NCBI GenBank assembly: GCA_963711155.1 | Contig: CAVQDB010000004.1 | Span: 336,486-400,485 of the forward strand | Length of the DNA stretch: 64,000 nt | From: an uncultured Armatimonadetes bacterium | GTDB taxonomy: Bacteria > Armatimonadota > UBA5829 | Direction: 5' to 3' | Program-made: the position numbers and the translations under genes | Part shown: one piece after another, positions 50,826 through 64,000 of the stretch | Numbering within the stretch: the stretch's first letter is position 1 | Layout of the letters: each line of letters opens with the position of its first letter | The notes under the pieces: model-generated | What the model saw: only the letters and a program-made list of their open reading frames with translations | What the model was told of the DNA's origin: nothing | Databases searched by the model: none

Positions 50826-51032
50826 ATGAAAGGCAAAATGCAAGGTGTTTCTCACGCAGTGAACGAGGCGCTATTCGAGGTGGCGCTCATCCTTGCCACC
50901 GGATTATTCCGGGCACGGCAGCGAGCACTCCCGATGCCGGCAGATGCCGGCTTCTCCGAGACAGGGCTTGACTGTCCGCAAAAACCGAGCGTTCATACAA
51001 TGACGCTGGCAGCGCGAGGTGGGCAACTATGA
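50826..51032 (+). CDS. Small single-TM protein, translationally coupled to the endolysin (holin-like or anti-sigma candidate)
   Basis: RBS GAGG. MKGKMQGVSHAVNEALFEVALILATGLFRARQR.... Its stop overlaps the endolysin ATG (ATGA). Confidence 0.3.
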   Translation: MKGKMQGVSHAVNEALFEVALILATGLFRARQRALPMPADAGFSETGLDCPQKPSVHTMTLAARGGQL

Positions 51033-51442
51033 GCGCCTCACGCGTCGGTCTCGATCCTGAGTTTGCGAAGAAGCTTGCGCTGTTCGAGAAGAAGCTCGCC
51101 TCCAACGGCATCAAGGTGATCCTTACTGCCGGCTACAGGTCCATTCAGGAGCAGAACGGTCTGTACGCTCAGGGACGAACAAAGCCGGGCAAGAAGGTGA
51201 CCAATGCGCGCGGCGGAGAGAGCTGGCACAACTTCGGCCTTGCCGGCGACTACGCGTTCGTGATCAACGGCAAGGTCACCTGGAACGGCCCGTGGCCAAC
51301 GTTCGGCAGGATAGCCCGCGAGTGCGGGCTCGAGTGGGGCGGCGACTTCAAGACGATACTCGACCGCCCGCACGTGCAGTGGACGCGCGGCAAGACGCTC
51401 GCGCAGATGCGCCAGGCCGCCCAAACAAAGAAGACGTGCTGA
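51029..51442 (+). CDS. Peptidase M15 (VanY / L-Ala-D-Glu peptidase-like) endolysin
   Basis: ...ILTAGYRSIQEQNGLYAQGRTKPGKKVTNARGGESWHNFGLAGDYAF...GLEWGGDFKTILDRPHVQW carries the S.H..G.A.D and D.pH zinc-ligand motifs. Confidence 0.8.
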   Translation: MSASRVGLDPEFAKKLALFEKKLASNGIKVILTAGYRSIQEQNGLYAQGRTKPGKKVTNARGGESWHNFGLAGDYAFVINGKVTWNGPWPTFGRIARECGLEWGGDFKTILDRPHVQWTRGKTLAQMRQAAQTKKTC

Positions 51443-51525
51443 ACGGTCTTTCTCTGCACGGCACTTGATTTCCTTGTGGTTGTGAGTGATGAATGGTCAT
51501 CAGGAACTACCACCAAGGAGGCATA

Positions 51526-51994
51526 ATGGCCGACTCTGTTGTGAAGCAGGTTGCGAGCCTGCCCAAACTCAAATACGAAGAGCTCAAGGCTATGTACGTG
51601 GCGCTCTACGGCAAGGAGCCTCCTGCCTACAATCGGGACCTGATCATCAAGCGTCTGGCCTATCGCCTGCAGGAGATTGCCTATGGCGGTCTGCCTGAGC
51701 GGGTGTTGCGCCGGCTTGATGAAGTGCTGGTCGAGAATGGCTATGACGAGAACGCGATGCCAATGGGCGTGTCCAAAGCGCAAGCGCAAAGTGATGAAAG
51801 ACCACCCGTGATCGGCACGGTGCTCGTGCGCGAGTGGCGCGGCGAGACGATATGAGGTCACCACCCTCCGAGATGGCTTTGAGTTTCAGGGGCGCAGGTA
51901 TCGCAGCCTCTCGGCTATTGCCGCCGCGATCACGGGTGCGCACCAGAGCGGTGTCGCGTTCTTCGGTCTGAAGCCTGCGAGGAGGAAGCAGTGA
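51526..51994 (+). CDS. DUF2924-family protein (recombinase-associated); 1 apparent frameshift near 51850
   Basis: RBS AAGGAGG. MADSVVKQVASLPKLKYEELKAMYVALYGKEPPAYNRDLIIKRLAYRLQEIAYGGLP...LVREWRGET / YEVTTLRDGFEFQGRRYRSLSAIAAAITGAHQSGVAFFGLKPARRKQ. A GTGA overlap joins it to the recombinase start. Confidence 0.7.
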
Positions 51995-53352
51995 TAACAC
52001 GAGATGCGCCGGCAGTCCGCACTCTTCGTTGCGCGGTCTACACTCGGAAGAGCACCGAAAAGGGCCTGGAGCAGGACTTCAACTCACTCGACGCCCAGCG
52101 CGAGGCGTGTGAGGCATACATCGCGAGCCAGAAGCACGAGGGCTGGGTCTGCCTGCGCGAGCAATACGACGATGGCGGCTTCAGCGGCGGCAACATGGAC
52201 AGGCCGGCACTGCAGAGGCTGATCGCCGATATCGAGAAGGGGAGGGTGGATGCGGTCATAGTCTACAAGATCGACCGCATCTCCCGCTCGCTCTTGGATT
52301 TCGCCAAGCTGATGGAGCTTTTCGAGCAGCACAAGGTGGCCTTCACGTCCATCACGCAGCAGTTCTCCACAACCACGGCTATGGGCAGGCTCACCCTCAA
52401 CATCCTCCTGAGCTTCGCCGAGTTCGAGCGCGCCATCGCCTCCGAGCGTGTCCGCGACAAGATCGCCGGAGCCAAGAAGCGCGGCAAGTACCTGGGCGGC
52501 ACACCGGCTTACGGCTATGACGTCGACTACAACGACAAGCGGTTGGTCGTCAATCCGAAAGAGGCCGACACCATCCGCTGGCTGTTCAGGCGATACCTCG
52601 CGACCAACTCGCTTGTCGGCATCGCCAAGGAACTCAATGCCAAGGGCATCACGACCAAGTCCTGGACGACAAAGAGAGGCAACTACCGCCAGGGCAGCCT
52701 GTGGACCGCTCAGCATGTGTACCGGGCACTCAACAACAAGATATTCCTGGGACTCGTCGAGCATGAGGGTGAGGTATACCCTGGCGAACAGGAAGCCATC
52801 ATCGACCAGAAGCTCTGGGACGATGTGCAGAGGGTTCTGGCATCGGGCCTGGGCAGGCAGCGACGCCAGCCGACACACGAGACCAACGCGCTGCTGCACA
52901 AGCTGATCCGCTGCGGTCACTGCGGCAAGGCGATGACCAACAGCTACACGAGGAAGAACGGCAAGGTCTATCGCTACTATGTCTGCGGCACCGCCGCCAA
53001 GCTCGGCTATGACGCCTGCCCGATCAGGACAGTCCCGGCCGGCGATATCGAGAACGCAGTGCTGGATCACCTGCGCGCGATTCTCCGCTCACCCGAACTC
53101 GTCGCCCAGACGTTCCGCGCGATGCAGACTCAAGCCGCCAGCGATCCCGACCTGCCGATAGCCGGCCTCACTGAACAAGACGTCGCCGAGTCACTGAACA
53201 CTCTGGACCCGGTATGGAGCGAGCTATATCCCGCCGAGCAATACCGGATCATGCGCGCCTTGGTCGACCACGTGATCGTCACCGAAGGCGGCATCGACAT
53301 CACGCTACGCGCCGACGGCCTCTACTCCGTCGCGTGCGAACTCAGAGAATAG
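51991..53352 (+). CDS. Large serine recombinase (resolvase/invertase N-domain + recombinase + zinc-ribbon domains)
   Basis: RCAVYTRKSTEKGLEQDFNSLDAQREACEAYI...YDDGGFSGGNMDRPALQRLIADIEKGRVDAVIVYKIDRISRSL...MGRLTLNILLSFAEFERAIASERVRDKI...YGYD...LIRCGHCGKAMTNSY...YYVCG. The ORF is intact. Confidence 0.9.
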   Translation: MITRDAPAVRTLRCAVYTRKSTEKGLEQDFNSLDAQREACEAYIASQKHEGWVCLREQYDDGGFSGGNMDRPALQRLIADIEKGRVDAVIVYKIDRISRSLLDFAKLMELFEQHKVAFTSITQQFSTTTAMGRLTLNILLSFAEFERAIASERVRDKIAGAKKRGKYLGGTPAYGYDVDYNDKRLVVNPKEADTIRWLFRRYLATNSLVGIAKELNAKGITTKSWTTKRGNYRQGSLWTAQHVYRALNNKIFLGLVEHEGEVYPGEQEAIIDQKLWDDVQRVLASGLGRQRRQPTHETNALLHKLIRCGHCGKAMTNSYTRKNGKVYRYYVCGTAAKLGYDACPIRTVPAGDIENAVLDHLRAILRSPELVAQTFRAMQTQAASDPDLPIAGLTEQDVAESLNTLDPVWSELYPAEQYRIMRALVDHVIVTEGGIDITLRADGLYSVACELRE

Positions 53353-53369
53353 GAGAGCAACGAACACGC

Positions 53370-53803
53370 ATGGCAGTGCAACTCATAGAATCCCCGGATG
53401 GACCGAGAATCCACATTCCGCTCAACCTGAAGCGCACGAGCGGCCGCAAGCGGATCGTCTTCCGTGAGGACCCAGAGTCGACAGCGGCCGAGAACACACA
53501 CTGCACCGCGTACCGCAACGCAATGCTCATCGCCATCGCCCGAGGCTTTCAGGTGGAGGAAGCTACTGGACGAAGGCAGATACATGTCCATCCGCCAGAT
53601 GGCGGACGATCTCGGCGTCGCTCGCTCCTTATATGTCCCGACTTATCCGACTGTCGCTTCTCGCCCCGGACATCATCGAGGCAATTGTCGACGGCCGCGA
53701 GCCGGATGGGATGTCGATTGAGAGGCTGCGAGGGCAGATGCCGTTGGTCTGGGAGGAGCAAGAGCGGGTGTTGGGGATGCCGGCCCCGGATGCCGTAGGA
53801 TAG
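53370..53803 (+). CDS. Recombinase-associated HTH-like protein (third member of the DUF2924/recombinase triad); 2-3 apparent frameshifts
   Basis: MAVQLIESPDGPRIHIPLNLKRTSGRKRIVF...NAMLIAIARGF / RWRKLLDEGRYMSIRQMADDLGVARS / ...LIRLSLLAPDIIEAIVDGREPDGMSIERLRGQMPLVWEEQERVLGMPAPDAVG, assembled from three frames. Confidence 0.5.
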
Positions 53804-53848
53804 GAAGCAGTGCAACCTTGCGCCACTGAGGCTGCACTGCTCTAGAGA

Positions 53849-53986
53849 CTACTTGCCTCTTTTCGATGGCCGCTGAGACAACGCGCTACCTGCCGCAGTC
53901 TTGCTGGCCTTTCCCGTGCTGCCACTCTTTAGAACTTTGGAGGCTGCACTGGCTGCCTTTGCACTGGTCACTTTTCCTCCAGCCAT
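53849..53986 (-). CDS. Small basic Lys/Ala/Ser-rich protein (45 aa), not in the ORF track
   Basis: My own translation: MAGGKVTSAKAASAASKVLKSGSTGKASKTAAGSALSQRPSKRGK, preceded by GGTGAGGGAAAA. Confidence 0.3.
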   Translation of the reverse strand: MAGGKVTSAKAASAASKVLKSGSTGKASKTAAGSALSQRPSKRGK

Positions 53987-54068: not shown

Positions 54069-54098
54069 TTGACGCAGACCTGTCGGAAGTAGTATACT
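54069..54098 (+). promoter_or_regulatory. Sigma70-like promoter of the XRE/ImmA/R-M operon, with a palindromic AGTATACT box
   Basis: TTGACG (54069-54074), an 18-nt spacer, then TATACT (54093-54098). The -10 sits inside the 8-bp palindrome AGTATACT (54091-54098). A second AGTATAC lies at 54149-54155, just before the XRE start. Confidence 0.45.
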
Positions 54099-54170
54099 AC
54101 TATTCGGGTGAGTCCGTCAACATTACTGGACTGCTCATTGTAGCCATTAGTATACACGGTGGTAGTAGAA

Positions 54171-54585
54171 ATGCGAAATGCCAATTCTGGCGAAGACACG
54201 AGCGCACTGGGCGCGCGGATAACCGGAGCGCGAACGGCGAAGGGCATCTCTGTGGCTCAGCTTGCTGACTTAGCCGGAGTATCCAAAGCATACATGCACC
54301 AGATTGAGAACGGCGAATGCAAGCGCCCGTCTGCACAAGTCATGTTTGACATAGCCAACGTTCTCGGAACGAGCGTCGGATACATTCTCGGCCGGGTACC
54401 CGATAATCCTGAGCCTGGAAAAGTCTAGAATTCCTGCCAGTCTGCAGGAGTTTGCCGATTCCCAGCCGGAACTCGTGGAAGATGAGATTGAGATGCTCGC
54501 CAGAATTCGTCATCGCGGAGATCAGCCGAAGACCGCTAAAGACTGGGAGTATCTCTGGGAGTCGATCAAGAGGTCTGTGAAGTAA
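54171..54585 (+). CDS. XRE-family HTH regulator; 1 apparent frameshift near 54420
   Basis: LGARITGARTAKGISVAQLADLAGVSKAYMHQIENGECKRPSAQVMFDIANVLGTSVGYILG (HTH_3), then ...PEPGK / SRIPASLQEFADSQPELVEDEIEMLARIRHRGDQPKTAKDWEYLWESIKRSVK. The stop lies 3 nt before the ImmA ATG. Confidence 0.8.
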
Positions 54586-54588
54586 CTC

Positions 54589-55485
54589 ATGGTGAATTAC
54601 GACCGGGTTATTGGAAGTGGCGGCCGTGTCTACTACAGCCAGATCGCTAGGGCTCTCGTAGACACGACCGGCATGCCGGATCCGGTTGCGGCAGTTGAGC
54701 ACTTGTCGAGTCAGCTGCTGCGGGAAGCCGATGTTGCGAGTCCGCCAATTGCTCTAGAGATGCTTGCTTCATTCCAGGGTGTCACGGCAATCAAGCTCGT
54801 TGATATGCCTGGGTCAGGTAGGATTGTGCCTAGAGGAGGCGGGAGCCTGGAAGTTCATCTCCGGATTGGCGATTCGCCAGGCCGTCGCAACTTCTCATTG
54901 GGGCACGAGATCGGTCACACCCTAATGCCTGGCTATCGGGCTCACCCGGAAGAAAAGCATGACCTTTATACAGGAGAGTTTGCCGAGAAGAACGAGGAGG
55001 AGTACTTCTGCGATATTGCGGCACGAAGTCTGCTGTTGCCGGAGGAGTTGTTTCGGTCGGTATGTACCGGCATGAGTCCATCGATTAATGGCCTACTCAT
55101 GTTAGCGGAGCAGTTTCAATGCTCTCTTGAAGCGGTTGCCCTGAGGATCGACCAGTCACGTGTCTGGCCGTGCATTCCTATCGTATGGGAACTGCAGCTG
55201 AAGCCTACACAGGTGAAGACGAAGAACGATTTGGCTCTACCTGGATTTGAGGAGTTGAGTATTCCGCAAGAGGAGTATCGAGTGAAATTCCACGCGGGAC
55301 GCGGTGCGCATGTATTCTTCCCGGCATTCAAGCATATTGGCAAAGACTGCCCTATGGTGCTTGGATGTATGCAGGAAACCAGCTTCAAGGGAAAGTGCTT
55401 GCTGCCAGCTTCCAAGAAGGACGTTGAGTGCTATGCTGAGGCAGTCGCTGTGCCTTACCGGGATAGAATCTTGTCCAGCGACTAA
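54589..55485 (+). CDS. ImmA/IrrE-family (M78) zinc metallopeptidase with a ~130-aa C-terminal extension
   Basis: RRNFSLGHEIGHTLMPGY (HExxH) ...EEYFCDIAARSLLLPEELF...LAEQFQCSLEAVALRI. The ORF is intact. Confidence 0.85.
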   Translation: MVNYDRVIGSGGRVYYSQIARALVDTTGMPDPVAAVEHLSSQLLREADVASPPIALEMLASFQGVTAIKLVDMPGSGRIVPRGGGSLEVHLRIGDSPGRRNFSLGHEIGHTLMPGYRAHPEEKHDLYTGEFAEKNEEEYFCDIAARSLLLPEELFRSVCTGMSPSINGLLMLAEQFQCSLEAVALRIDQSRVWPCIPIVWELQLKPTQVKTKNDLALPGFEELSIPQEEYRVKFHAGRGAHVFFPAFKHIGKDCPMVLGCMQETSFKGKCLLPASKKDVECYAEAVAVPYRDRILSSD

Positions 55486-55521
55486 GGATCATCTCACTAG
55501 CATTTGTGTGAGGACCAAAGG

Positions 55522-56301
55522 ATGGATATTACAAAGCTCATAGATAGTTTGGAGACGGTTTTCTACGAGGTTTTTGGGCTCCTTGTTCCGGCTGCATGTT
55601 TGTGTGCTCTTATGCTTCCATTCTTGCCGACAGCATACTGGTCTGATGCCGTTCGGCTGGAGCCTGCAGGTCCGCAGTACGTAGCTGTCGTTGTGCTGTT
55701 GTACATCCTTGGCGTGTTCCTAAATGCTGCTCGCAAGACGGAAGCAGCAGTGCTTGCGGCAATCGGACGATTCGTGAAAAGGGGCAAGAGCGAGAAAGAG
55801 ACAGGCACCGATCCAGCTTCTGCATATCCAGATCGCAACATCTACAGAGCTGCGCGCGACCAGATTGCTGCTCACTTCGGAATGCCTGCTGATGCTCTAT
55901 CCGATCTAGAAGTATTCAACCTATGCTTGAGTGTAGCTGGCGACAGAGCTGTAGCATATCGGAAGTTCGTATCCTTACGTGACATGATGCGAGGGATGGG
56001 TTTCGCTGTGACCGTTGCGGTAGTGGCGACGCTGACCAGACTCACTACATCCCCTTCCACGGCTTTGAGCATCGCACCATTCGCCAAGCTCACCGGTGTC
56101 CATCTGGCAGGAACCCTCAATAGTCTTGGTGGCGGCAGGCTTTTCTACGCTGGGATGCTTGTTGTATTGGTGGTTGCCAAGTGGGCGTTTTTCGGGCGTG
56201 AGAAACGGTACGAGGGCATTGGGCGCAGGATCATCTACCCGCTCGCACTGCAGGCATTAAGAAGTGCTCCAGGCTCACAAGAGAAAAGAGAGGAAAGCTA
56301 A
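55522..56301 (+). CDS. Multi-pass membrane protein of unknown function
   Basis: MDITKLIDSLETVFYEVFGLLVPAACLCALMLPFL...YVAVVVLLYILGVFL...GFAVTVAVVATL...LFYAGMLVVLVVAKWAFF. Its stop overlaps the next ATG (TAATG). Confidence 0.6.
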   Translation: MDITKLIDSLETVFYEVFGLLVPAACLCALMLPFLPTAYWSDAVRLEPAGPQYVAVVVLLYILGVFLNAARKTEAAVLAAIGRFVKRGKSEKETGTDPASAYPDRNIYRAARDQIAAHFGMPADALSDLEVFNLCLSVAGDRAVAYRKFVSLRDMMRGMGFAVTVAVVATLTRLTTSPSTALSIAPFAKLTGVHLAGTLNSLGGGRLFYAGMLVVLVVAKWAFFGREKRYEGIGRRIIYPLALQALRSAPGSQEKREES

Positions 56302-57158
56302 TGGTAGGTAAGCTGGAAGCGGTTGTTTTCGATGTTGGACATGGTGCTTGTATCCTGATCCGAACACCGAACGAGCGAACAGTTTTGATCGATCCTGGAT
56401 GCACCGATAAGTTCAGCCCTTCGGATCATCTTTTCACCGAATGGAAGACGACAAGTGTCGACATGATGGTTGTGACTCATCCACACGGCGACCACATCAA
56501 CGACATGGTCAATGTGGACCTGTATATGCATGTCGATTCTCTTCTGCGGAACAAGACTATGCCAGAGAGCATGATCTGTTCCGGTGGCGACAAGGCACCT
56601 GAAGCCGACCGGACATACTTAGTGAAGTATCACCGGAAGTACACGAGTAAGCGCGACTGGCAGGTTTCGATGATGAACCCGGATTACAATGGGGGCGTGA
56701 CGGTTCTGTCTGGAACCCTGGACTATGATCCGCGAACCCCCCTGAGCGCCAATAATCTCAGTCAGGTGATCAGGTTTCGATATGGGTGCTTGGACCTTCT
56801 TTGTCCAGGGGACATTGAACCAGCGGGTGTTGCTTTGCTCGCTGAAAAAAGTCCCAAACTTCTGGCTGCCGATGACGCAGCCTTGGAGTATCGCGTGATG
56901 ATCGCTCCACATCATGGCAGAGACTCTGCCGCTTCATCTGATCTCATAAAGCTTTTCAATCCTCACCTGGCCGTAATTTGTGATGAACACGGTGTGAAGA
57001 CCACCAACGACGACTTCTACCGATATCACTGCACTGGCCTGAGAGTGTATCGGAAGAGCACAGACACTGTAGAAGAGAAGTGCGTGCTTACAACCAAAAC
57101 AAACGACTATGTCTACCTCAGGGCAGACGATCAAAACCTCCTCGTGCAGGTACCGTAG
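56301..57158 (+). CDS. MBL-fold metallo-hydrolase (ComEC/Rec2-related beta-lactamase-fold type)
   Basis: AVVFDVGHGACILIRTPNERTVLIDPG...MMVVTHPHGDHIND (HxHxDH) ...LLCPGDIE...MIAPHHGRDSA. The ORF is intact and ends 13 nt before hsdM. Confidence 0.8.
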   Translation: MVGKLEAVVFDVGHGACILIRTPNERTVLIDPGCTDKFSPSDHLFTEWKTTSVDMMVVTHPHGDHINDMVNVDLYMHVDSLLRNKTMPESMICSGGDKAPEADRTYLVKYHRKYTSKRDWQVSMMNPDYNGGVTVLSGTLDYDPRTPLSANNLSQVIRFRYGCLDLLCPGDIEPAGVALLAEKSPKLLAADDAALEYRVMIAPHHGRDSAASSDLIKLFNPHLAVICDEHGVKTTNDDFYRYHCTGLRVYRKSTDTVEEKCVLTTKTNDYVYLRADDQNLLVQVP

Positions 57159-57171
57159 CCAAGGAAGAGAT

Positions 57172-59190
57172 ATGCCAAGACTTACACAACAAAAACTCGA
57201 GGCCCATCTGATGGGCGCGGCGAATATCTTGCGCGGGCGAACTGCCGGGCAGGACTACAAGACGTATATACTGACCCTGATGTTCTTCAAGCGTCTCTCG
57301 GACCAGTGGGACTATGAGGCTGAGGAGAAGATTCGGGAGATGGAGGCGCAGCGGGGCGAGCCATTTACGGATGCCCAGCGGAACGCGCTGCTGGCTACCG
57401 GCAACGTCCATCGGTTCACCATACCGGATGAATGTCATTGGCGGGATGTTCTCCGGCACTCCGAGAACATCGGTGAATGGCTTACCAAGGCGACAAAGGG
57501 CATCGCGACCGCGAATCCCGAGCTTATCGGCGTGTTCACGGTCGATTGGAACCAGCCCGCTCCCGATGGTCAGGGCAAGCTGATAGCCAATCCCGTCGTA
57601 AGCGCGCTGGTGCAGCACTTCAACGAGCTGAATTTGTCCAGCGAGAACGTCGAGCCCGATCTTCTTGGCCGCGCCTATGAATACCTTATCAAGTACTTTG
57701 CCGACGACGCCGGCGCGAAGGCGGGCGAGTTCTTTACGCCACCCGAGGTCGTCGATATTCTCATCCGCTGCCTTGAGCCTCAGCCTGGAGAGACGGTCTA
57801 TGACCCGACATGTGGCTCCGGCGGCATGCTTGTGCATTCGGCGGACTTTCTGAAGGAGCACGGATACAGGCCGGACCAGGTTCAATACTTCGGTCAGGAG
57901 ATGAACTGGTCTACCTACGCCATCGCCAGAATCAATATGATCCTGCACGGGCTTGAGGCAAAGATACGCGGCGGCAAGAGCACGCTCACCGATCCTCAGT
58001 TCCTGAAGGATGACGGCAGTATAGATCAGTTTGATGTGGTCATCGCCAATTTCCCATTCTCTGATGAGGTCTGGTGGCTGCCAGAAGATCAGCGGACGGA
58101 CGACCAGGTCAAGAAAGCCAAGAAGCAGATGAGCAAGGACGGCTTCCGTGACCCGTATAACCGGTTCACTTTCGGCAGGCCGCCGGCGAGCAACGGTGAC
58201 TTTGCGTTCATACAGCACATCATCGCCAGCGCCAAGAAAGACGGCAGGTGCGGCGTCGTGTGCCCGCAGGGGGTGCTGTTCCGTGGCCAGCCAGAAATCG
58301 AGGAAGAGACCGAGGAACTGGACAAGAACGGCAACCCAAAGATTCGGCGGCGCAAGGCGGATGATGAGTATCTGATCCGCAAGGGCATGTTGGACGCCCG
58401 GATGATCGACTCCATTATAAGCCTGCCTCTTAATGTGTTCTATGGAGCCGGTGTGCCCGCGTGCTTGCTGATTCTCAACAAGAACCGTGCTAAACGCGAG
58501 GATAAGGTGCTCTTGGTATATGCGGCGCGGCATTACCAGGAGCTTTCCGCCCAGAACAAGCTCCGTCCGCAGGACATAATGCGCATTTTGGTCCATTACC
58601 ACGCCTATGGTGACCCCGCGAAGGCCGCGCCGCTTGTGGAGTATCATCGCGACAGACTACACGGCATAGTGACTACTAATGAGGAAGAGGATGTCGCCAG
58701 GGTGTGGACCGAGTATGAGGAATTTGCCGCGAAGCTCGGTGAGTTCGAAGATGAGTTGGCCAAGGTAGACTCTCAGATCGCGGCGGAATCACGCAAGACT
58801 GAGCGAGCCAAACTCGAAAAGACAAAGGCACGGCTGGAAAAGCAGGCGGACAGGCCCAGAAAGAAGCTGGAGGAGCGTGACGACCGCATATCAGAGACTC
58901 GCAAGCGTGCCGAGGAAGAGCGCCAGGCGATACATGCCGTCGGCGCGGAGTTGATAGCCCTATACAATGATCCGGCGGAACTGGCGAAGCACGCCCGCGT
59001 TGTGGATATGGAAGAAATCGACGAAAACGAGCACAACCTCAACATCCCTCGTTACGTGGACACCTTTGAGCCGGAAGAGCCGATTGATGTGAATAAGGCT
59101 CTGGCTGAGTTGGACACTGCCGAGGACGAACGGCTGAAGGCAGATACCCATCTGCGGAAGCTGCTTGCGGAGGTAGGGTATGCAGGTTGA
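57172..59190 (+). CDS. hsdM: Type I restriction-modification system, methyltransferase subunit
   Basis: MPRLTQQKLEAHLMGAANILRGR...DYKTYILTLMFFKRLSD (HsdM_N); GEFFTPPEVVDILIRCLEP...VYDPTCGSGGMLV; DVVIANFPFS (an NPPF-type motif, here NFPF). A long C-terminal coiled coil follows. The ORF is intact. Confidence 0.92.
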   Translation: MPRLTQQKLEAHLMGAANILRGRTAGQDYKTYILTLMFFKRLSDQWDYEAEEKIREMEAQRGEPFTDAQRNALLATGNVHRFTIPDECHWRDVLRHSENIGEWLTKATKGIATANPELIGVFTVDWNQPAPDGQGKLIANPVVSALVQHFNELNLSSENVEPDLLGRAYEYLIKYFADDAGAKAGEFFTPPEVVDILIRCLEPQPGETVYDPTCGSGGMLVHSADFLKEHGYRPDQVQYFGQEMNWSTYAIARINMILHGLEAKIRGGKSTLTDPQFLKDDGSIDQFDVVIANFPFSDEVWWLPEDQRTDDQVKKAKKQMSKDGFRDPYNRFTFGRPPASNGDFAFIQHIIASAKKDGRCGVVCPQGVLFRGQPEIEEETEELDKNGNPKIRRRKADDEYLIRKGMLDARMIDSIISLPLNVFYGAGVPACLLILNKNRAKREDKVLLVYAARHYQELSAQNKLRPQDIMRILVHYHAYGDPAKAAPLVEYHRDRLHGIVTTNEEEDVARVWTEYEEFAAKLGEFEDELAKVDSQIAAESRKTERAKLEKTKARLEKQADRPRKKLEERDDRISETRKRAEEERQAIHAVGAELIALYNDPAELAKHARVVDMEEIDENEHNLNIPRYVDTFEPEEPIDVNKALAELDTAEDERLKADTHLRKLLAEVGYAG

Positions 59191-60452
59191 GTGTTTTCCG
59201 AATGTGCCCAGCGATTGGGAGCAACGGCTGTTTAGCAAGCTTGCGGATGTAAACCCCCGCTATCCGATCCAGAAGGACCACGAGTATCCATTTGTTGAGA
59301 TGGCTGCAGTCGAGGAAGACTTCGGTGGCATCTCCGGTTTCGACAGGCGGAGAGCCGAATCCTCGGGACTGGCCAAGTTCGCTCTCCACGACACGATATT
59401 CGGCAAGATCACGCCGTGCGCTGAAAACGGGAAAGTGGCATACGTTGATCGCCTGCCAGGTGACTACGGCTTGGGCTCCACGGAGTTTATAGTGCTGTTC
59501 TCCGAAGAACGGCTGCGATTCCAGATACCTGTATGCCCTTGCTTGCTCGAATCCGGTGTTGGGACGCGCGATCTCTAGGATGGAGGGCTCGACCGGGCGC
59601 TTGCGTGTGAAGGAAGACACTTTCACGAAATGGCTTTTGGTACCATGTCCCCCGCTCCCGAGCAGGCCTCGATAGCGCGCATCCTGGACGCGGCAGACAG
59701 CGCCATCGATTCCACTCACAAGGCCATTGAGAAAGCTCAGAGGGTGAAGAAGGCGCTGATGCAGAAGCTGCTGGGAGATGCCCACTTGCCCGTCCGCAAA
59801 ATGGGAGCGTTCATTGCGGACATTAGCTATGGCACCTCCAAGGCGTCCAATGACAGGACGCACGGATACCCTACTCTTCGGATTCCGAATGTGGTGGGTG
59901 ACACGATTGACACAACCGATCTAACATACGTTGAGGTATCAGGTTCTGAGCGGCGGAAGTATAGCCTATATCCCGGTGACCTTCTTCTGGTGCGCACGAA
60001 TGGCAATCCTTCATACATTGGTCGCTCCGCAGTCTTCTCGCACAAGGACAATGAAACTTGGCTTTACGCATCATACCTGATTCGGGTTCGATTCTCAGAC
60101 GAGTTGCGGCCTAAGTTTGTCGATGAGTTCCTTAAGTCCGAGCGTGGTCGCAGGGAGTTGTTCCGAAGAGTCACGACATCAGCCGGCAATTACAATATAA
60201 ACACCCAGAGCATCAAAGCAATACCAGTGCCGCTGTTCGATCCCGATCAACAGGATCGAATTGTGGGTTTGACGGATGCCGCGAATGAAGAGCTAAGAAC
60301 ACTGGCAAAGCAGGAGTCTGTGTTGCTACAGTCTCAAGCGCGGCCTCATGCAAGACCTTCTCACAGGCAAGGTGCGAACTGCGGCAATCGCCGAGAGAAT
60401 CCTCGCAGGCGCGGAACCGGCGCTAGCGGAGATCGGAGGGGTGAAGCCTTGA
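59180..60452 (+). CDS. hsdS: Type I R-M specificity subunit; about 3 apparent frameshifts (near 59495, 59655 and 60330)
   Basis: TRD1: ...LAKFALHDTIFGKITPCAENGKVAYVDRLPGDYGLGSTEFIVL. Central helix: PEQASIARILDAADSAIDSTHKAIEKAQRVKKALMQKLL. TRD2: ...TLRIPNVVGDTIDTTDLTYV...GDLLLVRTNGNPSYIGRSAVF.... Tail: LKRGLMQDLLTGKVR. Confidence 0.85.
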
Positions 60453-63400
60453 CCGAGCAAGGATATGTGGAGAAGCCCATACTGGAATGGCTCGCAGGGA
60501 ATTTGGATGATCCCACCGACCTCGGGATGGGCTGGACCTATCGCTCTCCTGAGATGATGGAGTCCTACGGCAGGAACATCACCGATCCGCTCGTAGAGGC
60601 CATCCTCATTCCCGCCATAATGCGGATCAACGACAGCGTGAACACCGAGGATCAGGCACGGAAAGTCATCAGCGTGTTTCGCAGAATAATGGCCGCGCCC
60701 GATTTGCTGACCGCGAACAGGGAAACCCTGTCTGCGCTCGCCGATGGCATTTCTGTGGTTCTGAGCCCCGGCGAGGACGCGACGACAGTTAGGCTGATCG
60801 AGTCCGATCCCTGCAAGCGTGACCTCAACGATTTCACCGTGACCAACCAGTACCCAGTGAAGGGCACGAAGACCTGTAAGGCGGATACTGTGCTGCTGGT
60901 GAATGGCATACCGGTAGTGGTCGCCGAGTACAAGAGCTATATATCCAGCTCGCACGATTGGACCGAAGGGGTACGGCAGGTGCACAGATACCAGCGCGAA
61001 GCTCCGGCGCTCCTGGCCACGAACATATTCTGCGTGGCGGCGGATGAGCAGGAATTCCGCTATGGCGCGGTGGCGTTCGCGCCGGATTCCGAGAAGGCGA
61101 TCAGTGCCCAGATGGAGTACTGGAACCCCTGGCTCAGCCAGTATCCCAAGACGGAACTATACTGGACACTGCCAGAAGGAGAACGTGACGACGACAAAGT
61201 GCGCGCGGCGGCCCACGGCCTGCTGCTGCCGGGCAATGTGATCGACTTCATCGAGAACTTCGTCGTGTTCGAGACCAGCAAAGGCAAGACCGTTAAGAAG
61301 ATCGCCCGGTATCAGCAATTCGAAGCCGCGAACGACATTGTGGACCGGGTGCTCGATGGCAGCCACAAGACCGGCCTTATCTGGCACACGCAAGGGTCAG
61401 GCAAGAGCCTCACGATGGTTTATGCCGGTTATAAGCTACGCCGGCAGACCGCGCTGGACAATCCCACAGTGTACATAGTTGTCGACCGCACGGACCTCAA
61501 GACCCAGATAGCCGATGAGTTCGAGTACCGTGATTACCCAAACGTGGTGAAGGCGATGGGCGTGCGAGATCTGAAGAGCAAGATCGCCGGGGACAGGCGG
61601 GAGACAATCGTCACTACCATCCAGTGCTTCCAGGCAATGAACGATCTTCAGCCGAACCTGCGCCACAACATCATCATGATGATAGACGAAGCTCACAGGA
61701 GCCAGAAAGGCGGCTCTGGCTTGCGCGGCGGGCGCGATCAGGCGGCAAGCTTCGCCATGACGATGCGCGCCAAGATGCCGCACGCATTCCGCTTCGGCTT
61801 TACCGGCACCCCGATTGATCGCACGATGGTCAACACTCACCGAGAGTTCGGCCCGATCGTCGATGGGGAGCAGGAGAGGTATCTCAGCTACTATGGCATT
61901 CGACAATCCATCACCGACGGAGCCACGCTGGAAGTCCACTACAAGCCGAGTTACATCCCCGTCAGGGTAGACGAAAAGCCGCTCAACGTATCGTTCGAGC
62001 AGATGTGCACGGAAATGGAGCTTGAGGACGAGGAAGAGAAAGACTTCTTGCAGCGCAAAGAGGCCCGATGGAAGGCGCTGGTCAAGGATAGCCGACGCAT
62101 CAAAGAGGTGATTTCGCACATGGTGGAGCATTTCCTTGAGCATCCTGATCCCAATGGGTTCAAGGCGCAACTTGTCACCATCGACCGCGAAGCGTGCTCC
62201 ATGTATAAGGACGAGATCGACGCCCAACTAACGGCGGCGGGTTATCCGGCACAGTGGTCGGATGTCGATTATCTCGGAGGGCCAGAATGACCCACCGGAA
62301 CTTGAGCGGTTCCATTACTCGAAAGAGAAGACCGAGGACATCATCACCCGCTTCAAATTGACGCCGGCGCAGTTCGAGAAATACAACCGGGAAAAGCACG
62401 GAGAAGACAGATCCAAGTGGGAGACTCCGCTCAAGATTCTCATTGTCTGCGACAAGCTGCTCACCGGCTTCGACGCCCCGATTGAGCAGGTGATGTATCT
62501 GGACAAGCCTCTGCGCGACCATAATCTGCTTCAAGCAATTGCGCGCACGAATCGACCGTTCCCCGAGATGGGCAAGCGCGACGGCTTGATCGTGGACTAC
62601 TTCGGCGTGTTCAACGACCTTGAGAAGGCGCTCAACTTCGACAAGAGCATCCGCGAGGAAGCCGTTATCGACTGGGACAAGCTCCGCGAAGAGGTGCCGA
62701 TTCAGGTCGGACAGTGCATGGGGTTCTTTCACGGCATCAAGAAGGAAGATACCCGCCAGTGCCTGCTGGAATGTCTGCGCAGGCTTGCCGACGAGGAGCG
62801 GGCTCGACAGTTTGAAACGCAGTTCAAAAGGTTGGAAGTGCTCTGGGAAGCGTTGTCGCCGGATGAGTGTCTGTATGACTACCGGTTCGACTACGCCTGG
62901 CTGTGCGGCATCTACATCGCACACCGTCGGCGGAATCGGCGGGCGCTGGCGTCACACGAGGAACTGGCGGCAAAGACTCGCGAGCTTATCCGGCAGCATA
63001 CAACGTTCATGGACATAGCCGAGGATGTGCCTGTCTACAGGATCGACCAGGATTACCTGGTCAAGGTGACGGAACTGAAGTCACCTCAGGACCGCGCTGC
63101 CGAGTTGCAGAAAGCACTGGAGCGGGAACTGGTGGAAGGTGGGGGATTCCTCTATAAGCTACTGGGCGAGCGTCTGAAGAAAGCCATCGACAAGAAGGAG
63201 GCCGACGATCAGGCTGCGCTCAGGTTCATCGAAGAGGCCGAGGCCATAGTTGCTGAGATCAACGAGGCCAAACAAGAACCTGCCCGCCTTGGCCTGACTG
63301 GCACAGGTGAGTTCGAGGTGTTCCAGGTGATCCACGAGTTTGCGGCGGACAAGGACGAGCAGTTGTGCGTCAGAGCGGCGAAATCCATGCCGGATCAGCT

Positions 63401-63587
63401 CAGCAAGAAACAGCTCATGCCGAAAGGTTGGGCCAATACAGTCGGTGGACGGCAGAACGTAAGCCTCGCCCTACAGGTGGCATCGTGGGACCAGGAGTTC
63501 GAGAAACTGAATCTCTGCCCGACCGACCAGGCAGATCCCCCGTTCCTGCAAGCCGCTGTTGAGGAACTGGCGAGGGTTTCTGAATGA
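60449..63587 (+). CDS. hsdR: Type I R-M restriction/helicase subunit; 1 apparent frameshift near 62270
   Basis: TTG start after GGAGGGG, overlapping the hsdS stop. (M)TEQGYVEKPILEWLAGN...; nuclease region ...KADTVLLVNGIPVVVAEYKS; helicase motifs IWHTQGSGKSLTM, MMIDEAHRSQ, FGFTGTP; after the frameshift, ...ILIVCDKLLTGFDAP...LLQAIARTNR. Confidence 0.9.
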
Positions 63588-64000
63588 ACTTGCTCACGGA
63601 CGACAAACGATGTGTGGAGCTAGGCGGCAGGCAAGTCGAGTATGGCATCCGTCACTCACGACAGGCGAAGCGTCTACGGATAAGAGTGAACCCCGGTGGC
63701 GTTGAGGTAGTGCTTCCGAAGGGCAAAGACGCTCAGCAGGCAGACGATTTCGTCGTAAACAACGCAGCGTGGGTATTGGACCAGATCGAGTATATCAACC
63801 GCAGGGGTAGCATTCTGAGACCGAAACCGGATAGCGACCTGCGGACAATCCTGTTCTACGGACTTGAGACGCCGGTGAGGGTGACGGAAGAAGAGTCTAA
63901 CAGGCGTTTCGGAATCGTGCAACAGGTTAGGAAGCACATCAGAGTGCGTGTCCCCAATGGCGGGAGCATCGACCCTAACCGCTCATTAGAGTCCTGGCTT
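63584..64000 (+). CDS. YgjP-like / DUF45 (M48-type) metal-dependent hydrolase, 5' part (runs off the window)
   Basis: My own translation: MNLLTDDKRCVELGGRQVEYGIRHSRQAKRLRIRVNPGGVEVVLPKGKDAQQADDFVVNNAAWVLDQIEYINRR.... An ATGA overlap joins it to the hsdR stop. This family frequently accompanies type I R-M operons. Confidence 0.65.
   Translation, partial: MNLLTDDKRCVELGGRQVEYGIRHSRQAKRLRIRVNPGGVEVVLPKGKDAQQADDFVVNNAAWVLDQIEYINRRGSILRPKPDSDLRTILFYGLETPVRVTEEESNRRFGIVQQVRKHIRVRVPNGGSIDPNRSLESWL

Follow-up and report, generated by a model that had tools for sequence, protein, structure and literature searches.

The CapH/CapP regulators of anti-phage operons are the closest described counterparts of the system reported here, an XRE repressor and an ImmA-like peptidase at the head of eight packed genes in 64,000 nucleotides of DNA from an uncultured Armatimonadetes bacterium (contig CAVQDB010000004.1; this whole stretch is called the window below). 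CapH represses through its helix-turn-helix (HTH) and requires a C-terminal oligomerisation domain, and single-stranded DNA (ssDNA) stimulates CapP to cleave CapH inside that domain, so that the operon is induced by DNA damage (10.1101/2022.04.27.489752; 10.64898/2026.05.16.725639). The published genes lie upstream of the operon that they regulate, on the opposite strand (Lau et al. 2022, 10.1101/2022.04.27.489752). Members of the CapP family have a central HTH-like linker and, at the C terminus, a GAF domain that forms an ssDNA groove, and one third of them carry a cysteine-switch loop. CapH/CapP are homologous to ImmR/ImmA and related to IrrE/DdrO.

PrrC and RloC are restriction-linked defence genes that are not themselves restriction-modification (R-M) genes; they lie inside type I R-M loci and are co-transcribed with the hsd genes. 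In enteropathogenic Escherichia coli (EPEC), DarTG2 is embedded in a type I R-M operon under the control of RptR (Zhang et al. 2025, PMC12255303). As for effectors, ComEC-related double-stranded DNA (dsDNA) nucleases with a metallo-beta-lactamase (MBL) fold are established in defence when paired with proteases (PMC12642450, PMC12799240).

The locus in the window brings known parts together in a new combination and does not amount to a new kind of system; we put the probability that a CapH/CapP-type switch here heads a defence operon at about 60%. The likeness to CapH/CapP lies in an XRE-HTH repressor with a C-terminal tail beside a peptidase of the M78 family (~300 residues, HExxH motif), in the best PADLOC matches of both, and in their place beside an anti-phage operon (type I R-M in the window; CBASS, DISARM, type I R-M, or HKD-Snf2 with type IIG in orthologous loci). 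An association with DISARM is also reported in the CapH/CapP literature. New here are a co-directional architecture, R-M-type cargo under the switch, a bidirectional promoter with a shared palindrome, a conserved 45-residue open reading frame (ORF), and the pairing of a transmembrane (TM) protein with a ComEC-like MBL hydrolase. As in the RptR island, a small repressor gene heads an operon that joins type I R-M to a second, unrelated defence module, with a short palindromic (here putative) operator in the promoter. RptR, however, is one small protein that has neither a peptidase partner nor any known DNA-damage input, and its DarTG2 cargo and gene order differ.

The regulatory cassette and its cargo

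From 54.07 kb to the end of the window, eight co-directional genes on the + strand encode, in order, XRE, ImmA, the TM protein, the MBL-fold hydrolase, HsdM, HsdS, HsdR and a YgjP-like protein (Table 1). After correction of the frames discussed below, every junction is an overlap or a gap of at most 13 nt. The XRE and ImmA genes meet at TAA-CTC-ATG, the TM and MBL genes overlap in TAATG (56299-56303), 13 nt separate the MBL gene from hsdM, hsdM overlaps hsdS by 11 nt, and the hsdS/hsdR and hsdR/ygjP overlaps are TTGA (60449-60452) and ATGA (63584-63587). This direct reading of the DNA confirmed the packed run and the individual overlaps given in the initial annotation, with two amendments. The 3-nt gap between XRE and ImmA exists only once an extra base near 54426 is removed, and the probable corrected end of ImmA leaves 10 nt before the TM start codon at 55522, under the limit of 36 nt given there. 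We found no convincing + strand terminator between the promoter at 54069-54098 and position 64000, and the packing is compatible with one transcript.

The XRE protein matched Pfam HTH_31 (E 7.6e-12; HTH_3 also matched) and, as sequenced, the PADLOC capH model (1.9e-12). The corrected protein matched capH at 3.3e-13, with residues 11-111 aligned to profile positions 5-93 of 103. Its C-terminal tail, which is out of frame as sequenced, is conserved in five orthologues. ImmA matched Pfam Peptidase_M78 (1.3e-9) and PADLOC capP (1.4e-21), and, among solved structures, IrrE (1.7e-8) and CapP (7t5t; 0.026 from the sequence alone, 0.0019 from a profile of five orthologues). The HExxH peptidase with an extra C-terminal domain that was first described is recognisable in HEIGH and in some 115 C-terminal residues, a length as in IrrE and CapP, that no profile reaches. 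These matches support the earlier proposal of a derepression switch, which on this evidence would be of the CapH/CapP kind.

Searching with the TM protein and an ImmA alignment located five further loci with orthologous cassettes (L024, L028, L029, L030 and L040), in which XRE has 137-142 residues and is 59-82% identical, and ImmA has 301-341 residues and is 49-64% identical. The cargo of L030 comprises a CBASS cyclase, an E2 and an HNH-SAVED effector, and the cassette is divergent from it, which is the canonical CapH/CapP layout. L028 carries DISARM drmD and drmMI, L029 a type I hsdM-hsdS pair directly after ImmA, L040 an HKD-Snf2 helicase with a type IIG R-M enzyme, and L024 the same TM+MBL pair as the window. 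Cassette and cargo are co-directional in the window, L024, L028, L029 and L040, and divergent in L030 alone. With the co-directional first-gene position, the regulators would be autoregulated.

Because the same cassette heads CBASS, DISARM, type I R-M, type IIG R-M and TM+MBL cargo, XRE and ImmA are, on sequence grounds, a portable and generic CapH/CapP-type head of defence operons and not private to TM+MBL. XRE, ImmA, TM and MBL had been presented as one four-gene module. This grouping does not hold, since the cassette is common to unrelated cargo and in L029 directly precedes hsdM-hsdS; we therefore rejected a dedicated XRE-ImmA-TM-MBL system. In the window, the cassette most likely controls the whole operon, including restriction.

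The promoter region is conserved with the cassette. The sigma-70-like TTGACG-N18-TATACT first noted on the + strand (54069-54098) matches the consensus at 10 of 12 positions and is kept in the six orthologous loci. A mirror copy on the - strand (TTGACG-N18-TATACT, 54120-54091), overlooked in the initial annotation, also matches at 10/12 with an 18-nt spacer. The shared -10 is a perfect 12-bp palindrome, GTAGTATACTAC (54089-54100), whose centre is the exact centre of the 52-bp dyad. The palindrome does overlap the -10, as first described, but its supposed exact repeat 50 nt downstream is an imperfect one. Exact AGTATACT is found once in the window (54091-54098), and the second box, TAGTATAC/AGTATACA (54148-54156), is a 7/8 match 58 nt downstream of the first, though its position is conserved. 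Invariant in the six-locus alignment are TTGAC, part of the spacer, AGTATA-T and the mirrored GTCAA, together with a TAG..AC second box ~10 nt upstream of the GGTGGT Shine-Dalgarno sequence. Such conservation across six loci is better evidence of function than chance expectation in one window. We consider GTAGTATACTAC the probable operator of the XRE repressor, an assignment that stays putative, since this palindrome doubles as the -10 element.

The leftward promoter faces a 45-residue ORF, likewise missed at first, that is divergent from the XRE gene. Its counterparts have 43-45 residues (L024 168-305, L028 2226-2363, L029 1006-1140, L030 9288-9419 and L040 5942-6079) and the consensus MA.GKVTSA.AA.AASKVL.SGSTGK.SKTAAGSALSQRP..., and the nucleotide changes fall mostly at third codon positions (16/21 and 26/37). 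At least 376 protein clusters from several phyla belong to the family, with members in Xanthomonas, Saccharimonadales and Armatimonadetes; none is annotated, and the 45-residue ORF had no match in Pfam, PADLOC or NCBIfam. In L030, the small ORF is the first gene of the CBASS operon. In Xanthomonas it adjoins DUF488, and in some strains it lies right after a HigB, M78 peptidase and Beta_protein gene cluster.

The presence of this family beside HigB and an M78 peptidase would also suit a Rosmer-like toxin-antitoxin or abortive infection system, in which XRE and ImmA would be an antitoxin like RmrA, where XRE and M78 are fused; the toxin would be the membrane protein, alone or together with MBL, and the R-M genes would be mere neighbours. 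XRE and ImmA do match the PADLOC models for RmrA, the Rosmer antitoxin (down to 4.9e-9 and 1.9e-6, respectively), ImmA weakly matches the NCBIfam 'spr1629 family repressor/antitoxin', and small membrane proteins are common as toxins. However, the capH and capP models score far better (1e-12 to 1e-21), XRE and M78 are two separate genes, and no match to RmrT was found. Moreover, the same cassette precedes non-toxin cargo (CBASS, DISARM and R-M), and a TM+MBL pair at a further locus (L031) has no recognisable M78 gene upstream. We consider a Rosmer-like system quite unlikely and favour the CapH/CapP-type switch.

The membrane protein and the ComEC-like hydrolase

The product of the MBL gene had been called a ComEC-type metallo-hydrolase, and both profile and fold agree. 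It contains HPHGDH; a profile of its family matched the ComEC MBL domain (9ic4) at 5e-23 in a search of the PDB, and its AF2 model (pLDDT 90.7) matched the same domain in Foldseek (E 2e-15, TM-score 0.70/0.74). A word-index search returned 19 relatives of 26-37% identity, in which the metal-binding and catalytic residues are invariant. The motifs DVGxG, HxxxDH, NNxS, GD and PHHG are shared with ComEC (9ic4 and full-length structures), which is likewise a membrane-associated MBL nuclease. The window protein differs in standing alone at 285 residues, with Lactamase_B as its only Pfam match and no ComEC channel or OB domain, in having a TM partner unrelated to ComEC, and in its defence context. 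A function in competence DNA uptake was checked and rejected: the channel and OB domains are missing, the match to the ComEC_Rec2 model TIGR00361 (33.3 bits) is far below the cut-off of 190, and the synteny is with defence genes. As the ComEC nuclease domain is nearest in both profile and fold, and all metal-binding motifs are kept, the MBL protein is predicted to be a Zn-dependent phosphodiesterase or nuclease, probably the latter.

In PADLOC-DB v2.0.0 the MBL protein matched PDC-M48B (PDLC04675) over its full length (3.3e-36, residues 1-271 on profile positions 1-272 of 291). PDC-M48A, by contrast, matched neither the TM protein, nor any neighbour in the window, nor the neighbours of related MBL genes (26 in all), so that patatin and the other neighbours were rejected as the A component. 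A literature search for PDC-M48 found no paper and no published mechanism.

The TM protein has a conserved cytoplasmic helical insert (residues ~100-150) and no match in Pfam, PADLOC (E up to 1) or NCBIfam. An exhaustive search found only 7 relatives among 1.84e9 representatives, and a word-index search returned the protein alone. Its AF2 model is all-helical (pLDDT 75.6) and had no Foldseek match in the PDB at E <= 0.001 (best E 0.33). The membrane nature given in the initial annotation stands, with 3-4 predicted helices in place of the 4-5 stated there.

TM and MBL genes are neighbours in three loci, the window, L024 and L031. They are coupled by an 11-nt overlap in L024, and in L031 (765-2861) a ComEC-like MBL of 468 residues with a large insertion begins 9 nt after a TM homologue of 26% identity. 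L031 extends the pairing to a high-G+C lineage. Its contig ends right after the MBL gene, and the L024 sequence likewise stops at or just past its MBL gene.

A first metagenome scan for closer MBL relatives found none. For the locus search, the full alignment of 19 sequences was too divergent, and the sub-alignment used in its place found solely a patatin-linked sister clade with the variant HPDxDH. In the 20 genomic loci of this clade, a patatin-like phospholipase (~375 residues) almost always follows the MBL gene (L002 8001-10022, L004 3069-5127 and L005 9995-11977; also L007-L009, L012, L013, L017 and L021). The patatin had no PADLOC match, and the MBL+patatin pair looks like an uncharacterised two-gene defence candidate. 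Sister-clade MBLs occur inside type I R-M operons (L002/L003, L004, L005 and L018). In L002, L004, L005 and L018 the MBL+patatin genes lie between hsdM/hsdS and hsdR, a likeness to restriction-linked genes such as PrrC and RloC, whereas the extra genes in the window lie upstream of hsdM and are of other families.

At seven loci (L001, L007-L010, L014 and L015), sister-clade MBLs also lie beside E2-E1-JAB operons of the 6A-MBL type, which NCBIfam names as an anti-phage system. These operons (L001 3447-7666 and others, a few kb from MBL+patatin) encode an MBL of ~380-415 residues and a fused E2-E1-JAB protein of ~760 residues, with a TM protein in L001, L007 and L009, and also in L011. The window MBL differs from 6A-MBL, scoring 28.6 bits against the NF058524 cut-off of 220, and there is no E2, E1 or JAB gene in the window. 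A relationship between the window TM protein and that of the E2-E1-JAB/MBL operons was rejected (hhalign probability 0.4%).

The profile searches and the check for co-occurrence with R-M proposed earlier thus placed relatives of the family in defence islands and type I R-M operons. By fold and by guilt by association, we infer that TM+MBL is a defence module in which the MBL would act as a metal-dependent nuclease or phosphodiesterase and a variable partner (TM or patatin) would act at the membrane. The 'effector pair' proposed in the initial annotation is likewise conjectural.

With a peptidase and an MBL in one operon, ImmA might instead license the MBL or the TM protein by site-specific cleavage, as in the trypsin-, caspase- and subtilisin-MBL proenzyme modules. 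In Avs, Hachiman and other systems, ComEC-related dsDNA nucleases of the MBL fold start out as zymogens, which a neighbouring protease activates (PMC12642450, PMC12799240, 10.1101/2025.09.03.673762), and the MBL N-terminus weakly matches the effector models RTasMBL, LmuA and Avs1a. The window protein resembles the trypsin-MBL modules of Avs, Hachiman, pAgo and DRT in being a ComEC-related MBL-fold hydrolase proposed as a defence effector, but it belongs to another clade, and its partner is a membrane protein (patatin in the sister clade). The matches to protease-associated MBLs cover just the first ~60-70 residues. The protein is compact (285 residues, against 266 for the ComEC domain), and no occluding linkers stood out in its confident model, in which the active site was not inspected. 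The peptidase is an M78 enzyme with its own XRE substrate adjacent, and it travels with MBL-free cargo. No trypsin-, caspase-like or subtilisin protease is encoded at 54-64 kb, where the M78 and YgjP-like proteins are the only peptidases. Activation of the cargo by ImmA is therefore very unlikely, and a peptidase acting on the repressor remains the favoured reading.

Frame disruptions and flanking elements

The initial annotation presented the genes as intact, silently reading through about six apparent frameshifts within 9.5 kb (one each in XRE, ImmA and hsdR, and three in hsdS). As sequenced, XRE has one extra base near 54426 and stops at TAG 54426-54428 after 85-89 residues, and the 51 conserved C-terminal codons run on in another frame. 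All five orthologues read ...PEPGKVRIPASL... onward to a protein of 137-142 residues. The frame of ImmA shifts near 55464, and the ORF as sequenced ends at 55485, hiding the conserved tail ...LVQRLRIISLAFV; judged from this tail, the true stop is probably TGA 55509-55511. The changes in hsdS lie near 59500, 59665 and 60325, and that in hsdR near 62255; tblastn could not place the exact hsdS and hsdR sites, as the available homologues are too distant.

About six disruptions in 9.5 kb could mark a decayed locus, now a functionless pseudogene remnant whose repressor is truncated and whose hsdS and hsdR are broken. Yet past each shift the frame remains open and fully conserved, and unrelated genes are likewise disrupted: the prophage gene for DUF4815 (42-2060) is split into four frame segments compared with an intact, 76%-identical homologue of 1203 residues, and a gene at 53.2-53.8 kb (53214-53803) runs through three frames. 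Such an indel pattern is typical of long-read assemblies. Since the shifts are spread over the whole window and the shifted frames are open and conserved, we are fairly sure that they are assembly indels, and decay is improbable.

The type I R-M and YgjP-like genes are ordinary. HsdM, HsdS and HsdR were all recognised, HsdR in two pieces by PADLOC REase_I (5.7e-78 and 2.4e-30), and the frame breaks in hsdS and hsdR are probably assembly errors. HsdM scored 181 bits against an NCBIfam hsdM cut-off of 243; it is unusually long, with a Glu/Lys/Arg-rich coiled-coil segment of ~150 residues ahead of the C-terminus. A YgjP-like gene also follows hsdR in L002, L003 and L005. An Rfam scan of the whole window found no known RNA family.

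To the left, the window holds a myovirus-like prophage, also absent from the initial annotation, over its first ~51 kb. It lies mostly on the - strand, with DUF4815, a baseplate wedge/tail-fibre network, P2 gpI, baseplate J, gp25 and an M15-type peptidase/lysin (51029-51442). The + strand genes that follow (51493-53803) are a DUF2924-like gene, a large serine recombinase of 453 residues (51991-53352; CcrB/XisF-like) and a frame-split 'recombinase-associated' gene. The hairpin listed in Table 1 sits between the end of this last gene (53803) and that of the convergent small ORF (53849), and probably terminates transcription in both directions, insulating the module from the left.

This neighbourhood raises the question of whether XRE/ImmA serves the prophage or a serine-recombinase island as a switch for lysogeny or excision of the ImmR/ImmA type, with TM, MBL and R-M as passengers expressed on induction. 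Prophage and recombinase abut the module, and ImmR/ImmA are homologous to CapH/CapP. In L040 (Armatimonadetes MAG JACPPP010000116.1), a cassette with XRE 77% and ImmA 62% identical abuts a prophage whose tail genes are 76-80% identical in DNA and protein. In L030, too, a large serine recombinase adjoins the CBASS cargo, and the cassette may travel on serine-recombinase elements. Nevertheless, the genes under these promoters are those of the defence cargo and the small ORF, and none belongs to the phage or the recombinase. The hairpin and the convergent orientation separate the module from the recombinase, and the G+C content changes at 54 kb, from 0.61 to 0.53. Where DNA is available in L028 and L029, no phage genes lie beside the cassette, and no relative turned up when a viral-contig collection was scanned three times with the MBL and ImmA alignments. 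A tblastn search of plasmids with the small ORF and ImmA found nothing, and together with the metagenome result these scans imply that the module is not commonly plasmid-borne or catalogued as viral. There is thus only a slim chance that the pair is the immunity switch of an element, and we retain it as the head of a probable defence operon; the module itself may be cargo of the prophage or simply its neighbour.

Table 1. Features of the putative defence operon and its left boundary, in window coordinates
Feature	Position	Strand	Description
Hairpin, 13-nt arms	53806..53841		Stable inverted repeat; RNA fold -29.7 kcal/mol, z = -2.27
45-aa ORF (MAGGKVTSAKAASAASKVLKSGSTGKASKTAAGSALSQRPSKRGK)	53849..53986	-	Lys/Ala/Ser-rich; same position in all six cassette loci
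Face-to-face promoter pair	54069..54120	both	Dyad symmetry; + strand -35 TTGACG 54069-54074, - strand -35 CGTCAA 54115-54120
Second TAGTATAC box	54148..54155	+	In 5' UTR, directly upstream of Shine-Dalgarno GGTGGT 54158-54163
XRE, CapH-like repressor	54171..54585	+	N-terminal HTH and conserved C-terminal helical tail; corrected, 137 aa from ATG 54171
ImmA/IrrE/CapP-like Zn metallopeptidase	54589..55511	+	HEIGH at residues 106-110; C-terminal ~115 aa unmatched
TM protein	55522..56301	+	259 aa, all-helical; ~4 TM helices (3-4 predicted); translationally coupled to MBL gene
ComEC-type MBL-fold hydrolase	56301..57158	+	285 aa, stand-alone; motifs DVGHG, HPHGDH, NNLS, PGD, PHHG
hsdM, methyltransferase	57172..59190	+	672 aa; Pfam N6_Mtase 1.4e-85, HsdM_N 5.8e-21; PADLOC MTase_I 2.8e-108
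hsdS, specificity subunit	59180..60452	+	PADLOC Specificity_I matches on fragments; three-frame reading
hsdR, restriction subunit	60449..63587	+	TTG start; Pfam HSDR_N, SWI2_SNF2, ResIII, T1R_D3-like
YgjP-like metallopeptidase	63584..64000	+	Runs off window; Pfam YgjP-like 2.7e-8

Proposed control of the operon

How might such an operon be controlled? By analogy with CapH/CapP and IrrE/DdrO, the CapH-like XRE protein (HTH and C-terminal oligomerisation tail) would bind the TAGTATAC palindromes at the shared -10 and near the ribosome-binding site, holding down both the rightward operon and the leftward 45-residue ORF. The CapP-like ImmA, triggered by ssDNA, would then cleave the repressor, and the whole operon would be induced. 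One part of the cargo would be the ~4-TM inner-membrane protein translationally coupled to the cytoplasmic ComEC-type MBL, which we take, from fold and genomic neighbourhood, to be a Zn-dependent nuclease with an anti-phage role. It would work at the membrane with its TM partner, or would be paired with it as a membrane-damaging effector. The other part would be type I R-M of an ordinary kind, accompanied as usual by a YgjP-like gene. A second, regulated defence layer co-transcribed with restriction, as first proposed, is still the best reading, although the regulator belongs to a whole class of operons and the arrangement has a precedent in the RptR-DarTG2-type I R-M system (PMC12255303).

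Several observations weigh against this reading. Published CapH/CapP genes are divergent from their operon, whereas here, both in the window and in four orthologous loci, they are its co-directional first genes. The GAF-like C-terminal domain of CapP and IrrE is not confirmed in ImmA, as sequence profiles end at residue ~190, and hsdM sits uneasily under a repressor in the absence of basal or internal promoter activity. Without frame correction, the C-terminal domain of the repressor is missing and neither hsdS nor hsdR is intact; were this the true state, expression of the operon would be constitutive and restriction would be dead. For the cargo, the TM model is only moderately confident and unlike any solved structure, and two members of the TM family (L025 and L026) have no adjacent MBL gene. 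PDC-M48 requires an A component, which neither the TM protein nor its neighbours supply. The second-best structural relative of the MBL is a phosphorylcholine esterase, so its substrate could be something other than nucleic acid.

A bolder version, which we think unlikely, makes TM+MBL a new two-gene anti-phage system. In it, a ComEC-type nuclease that its 4-TM partner keeps at the inner membrane would destroy phage DNA as it enters, or a constant MBL would be combined with a swappable membrane-killing partner (TM or patatin). The ssDNA produced by the co-transcribed restriction enzyme would activate the CapP-like peptidase, the repressor would be destroyed and both layers induced, with the 45-residue ORF as a hitherto unrecognised third component of this class of cassettes.

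The favoured reading, a defence operon under a CapH/CapP-type switch, bears on the transcriptional control of anti-phage systems, which is much less understood than their mechanisms. Defence cargo of very different kinds shares one conserved cassette as a plug-in head, complete with its palindromic bidirectional promoter and small divergent ORF. Among this cargo are methylation-based systems (type I, type IIG and DISARM), whose expression is usually taken to be constitutive. A possible route for cross-talk also suggests itself, in that DNA breakage by restriction could raise expression of the second layer. The rare pairing of a TM protein with a ComEC-like MBL, and its sister pairing of MBL with patatin, are flagged as candidates for an uncharacterised defence mechanism. 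Current models of these operons would thereby be extended, not overturned.

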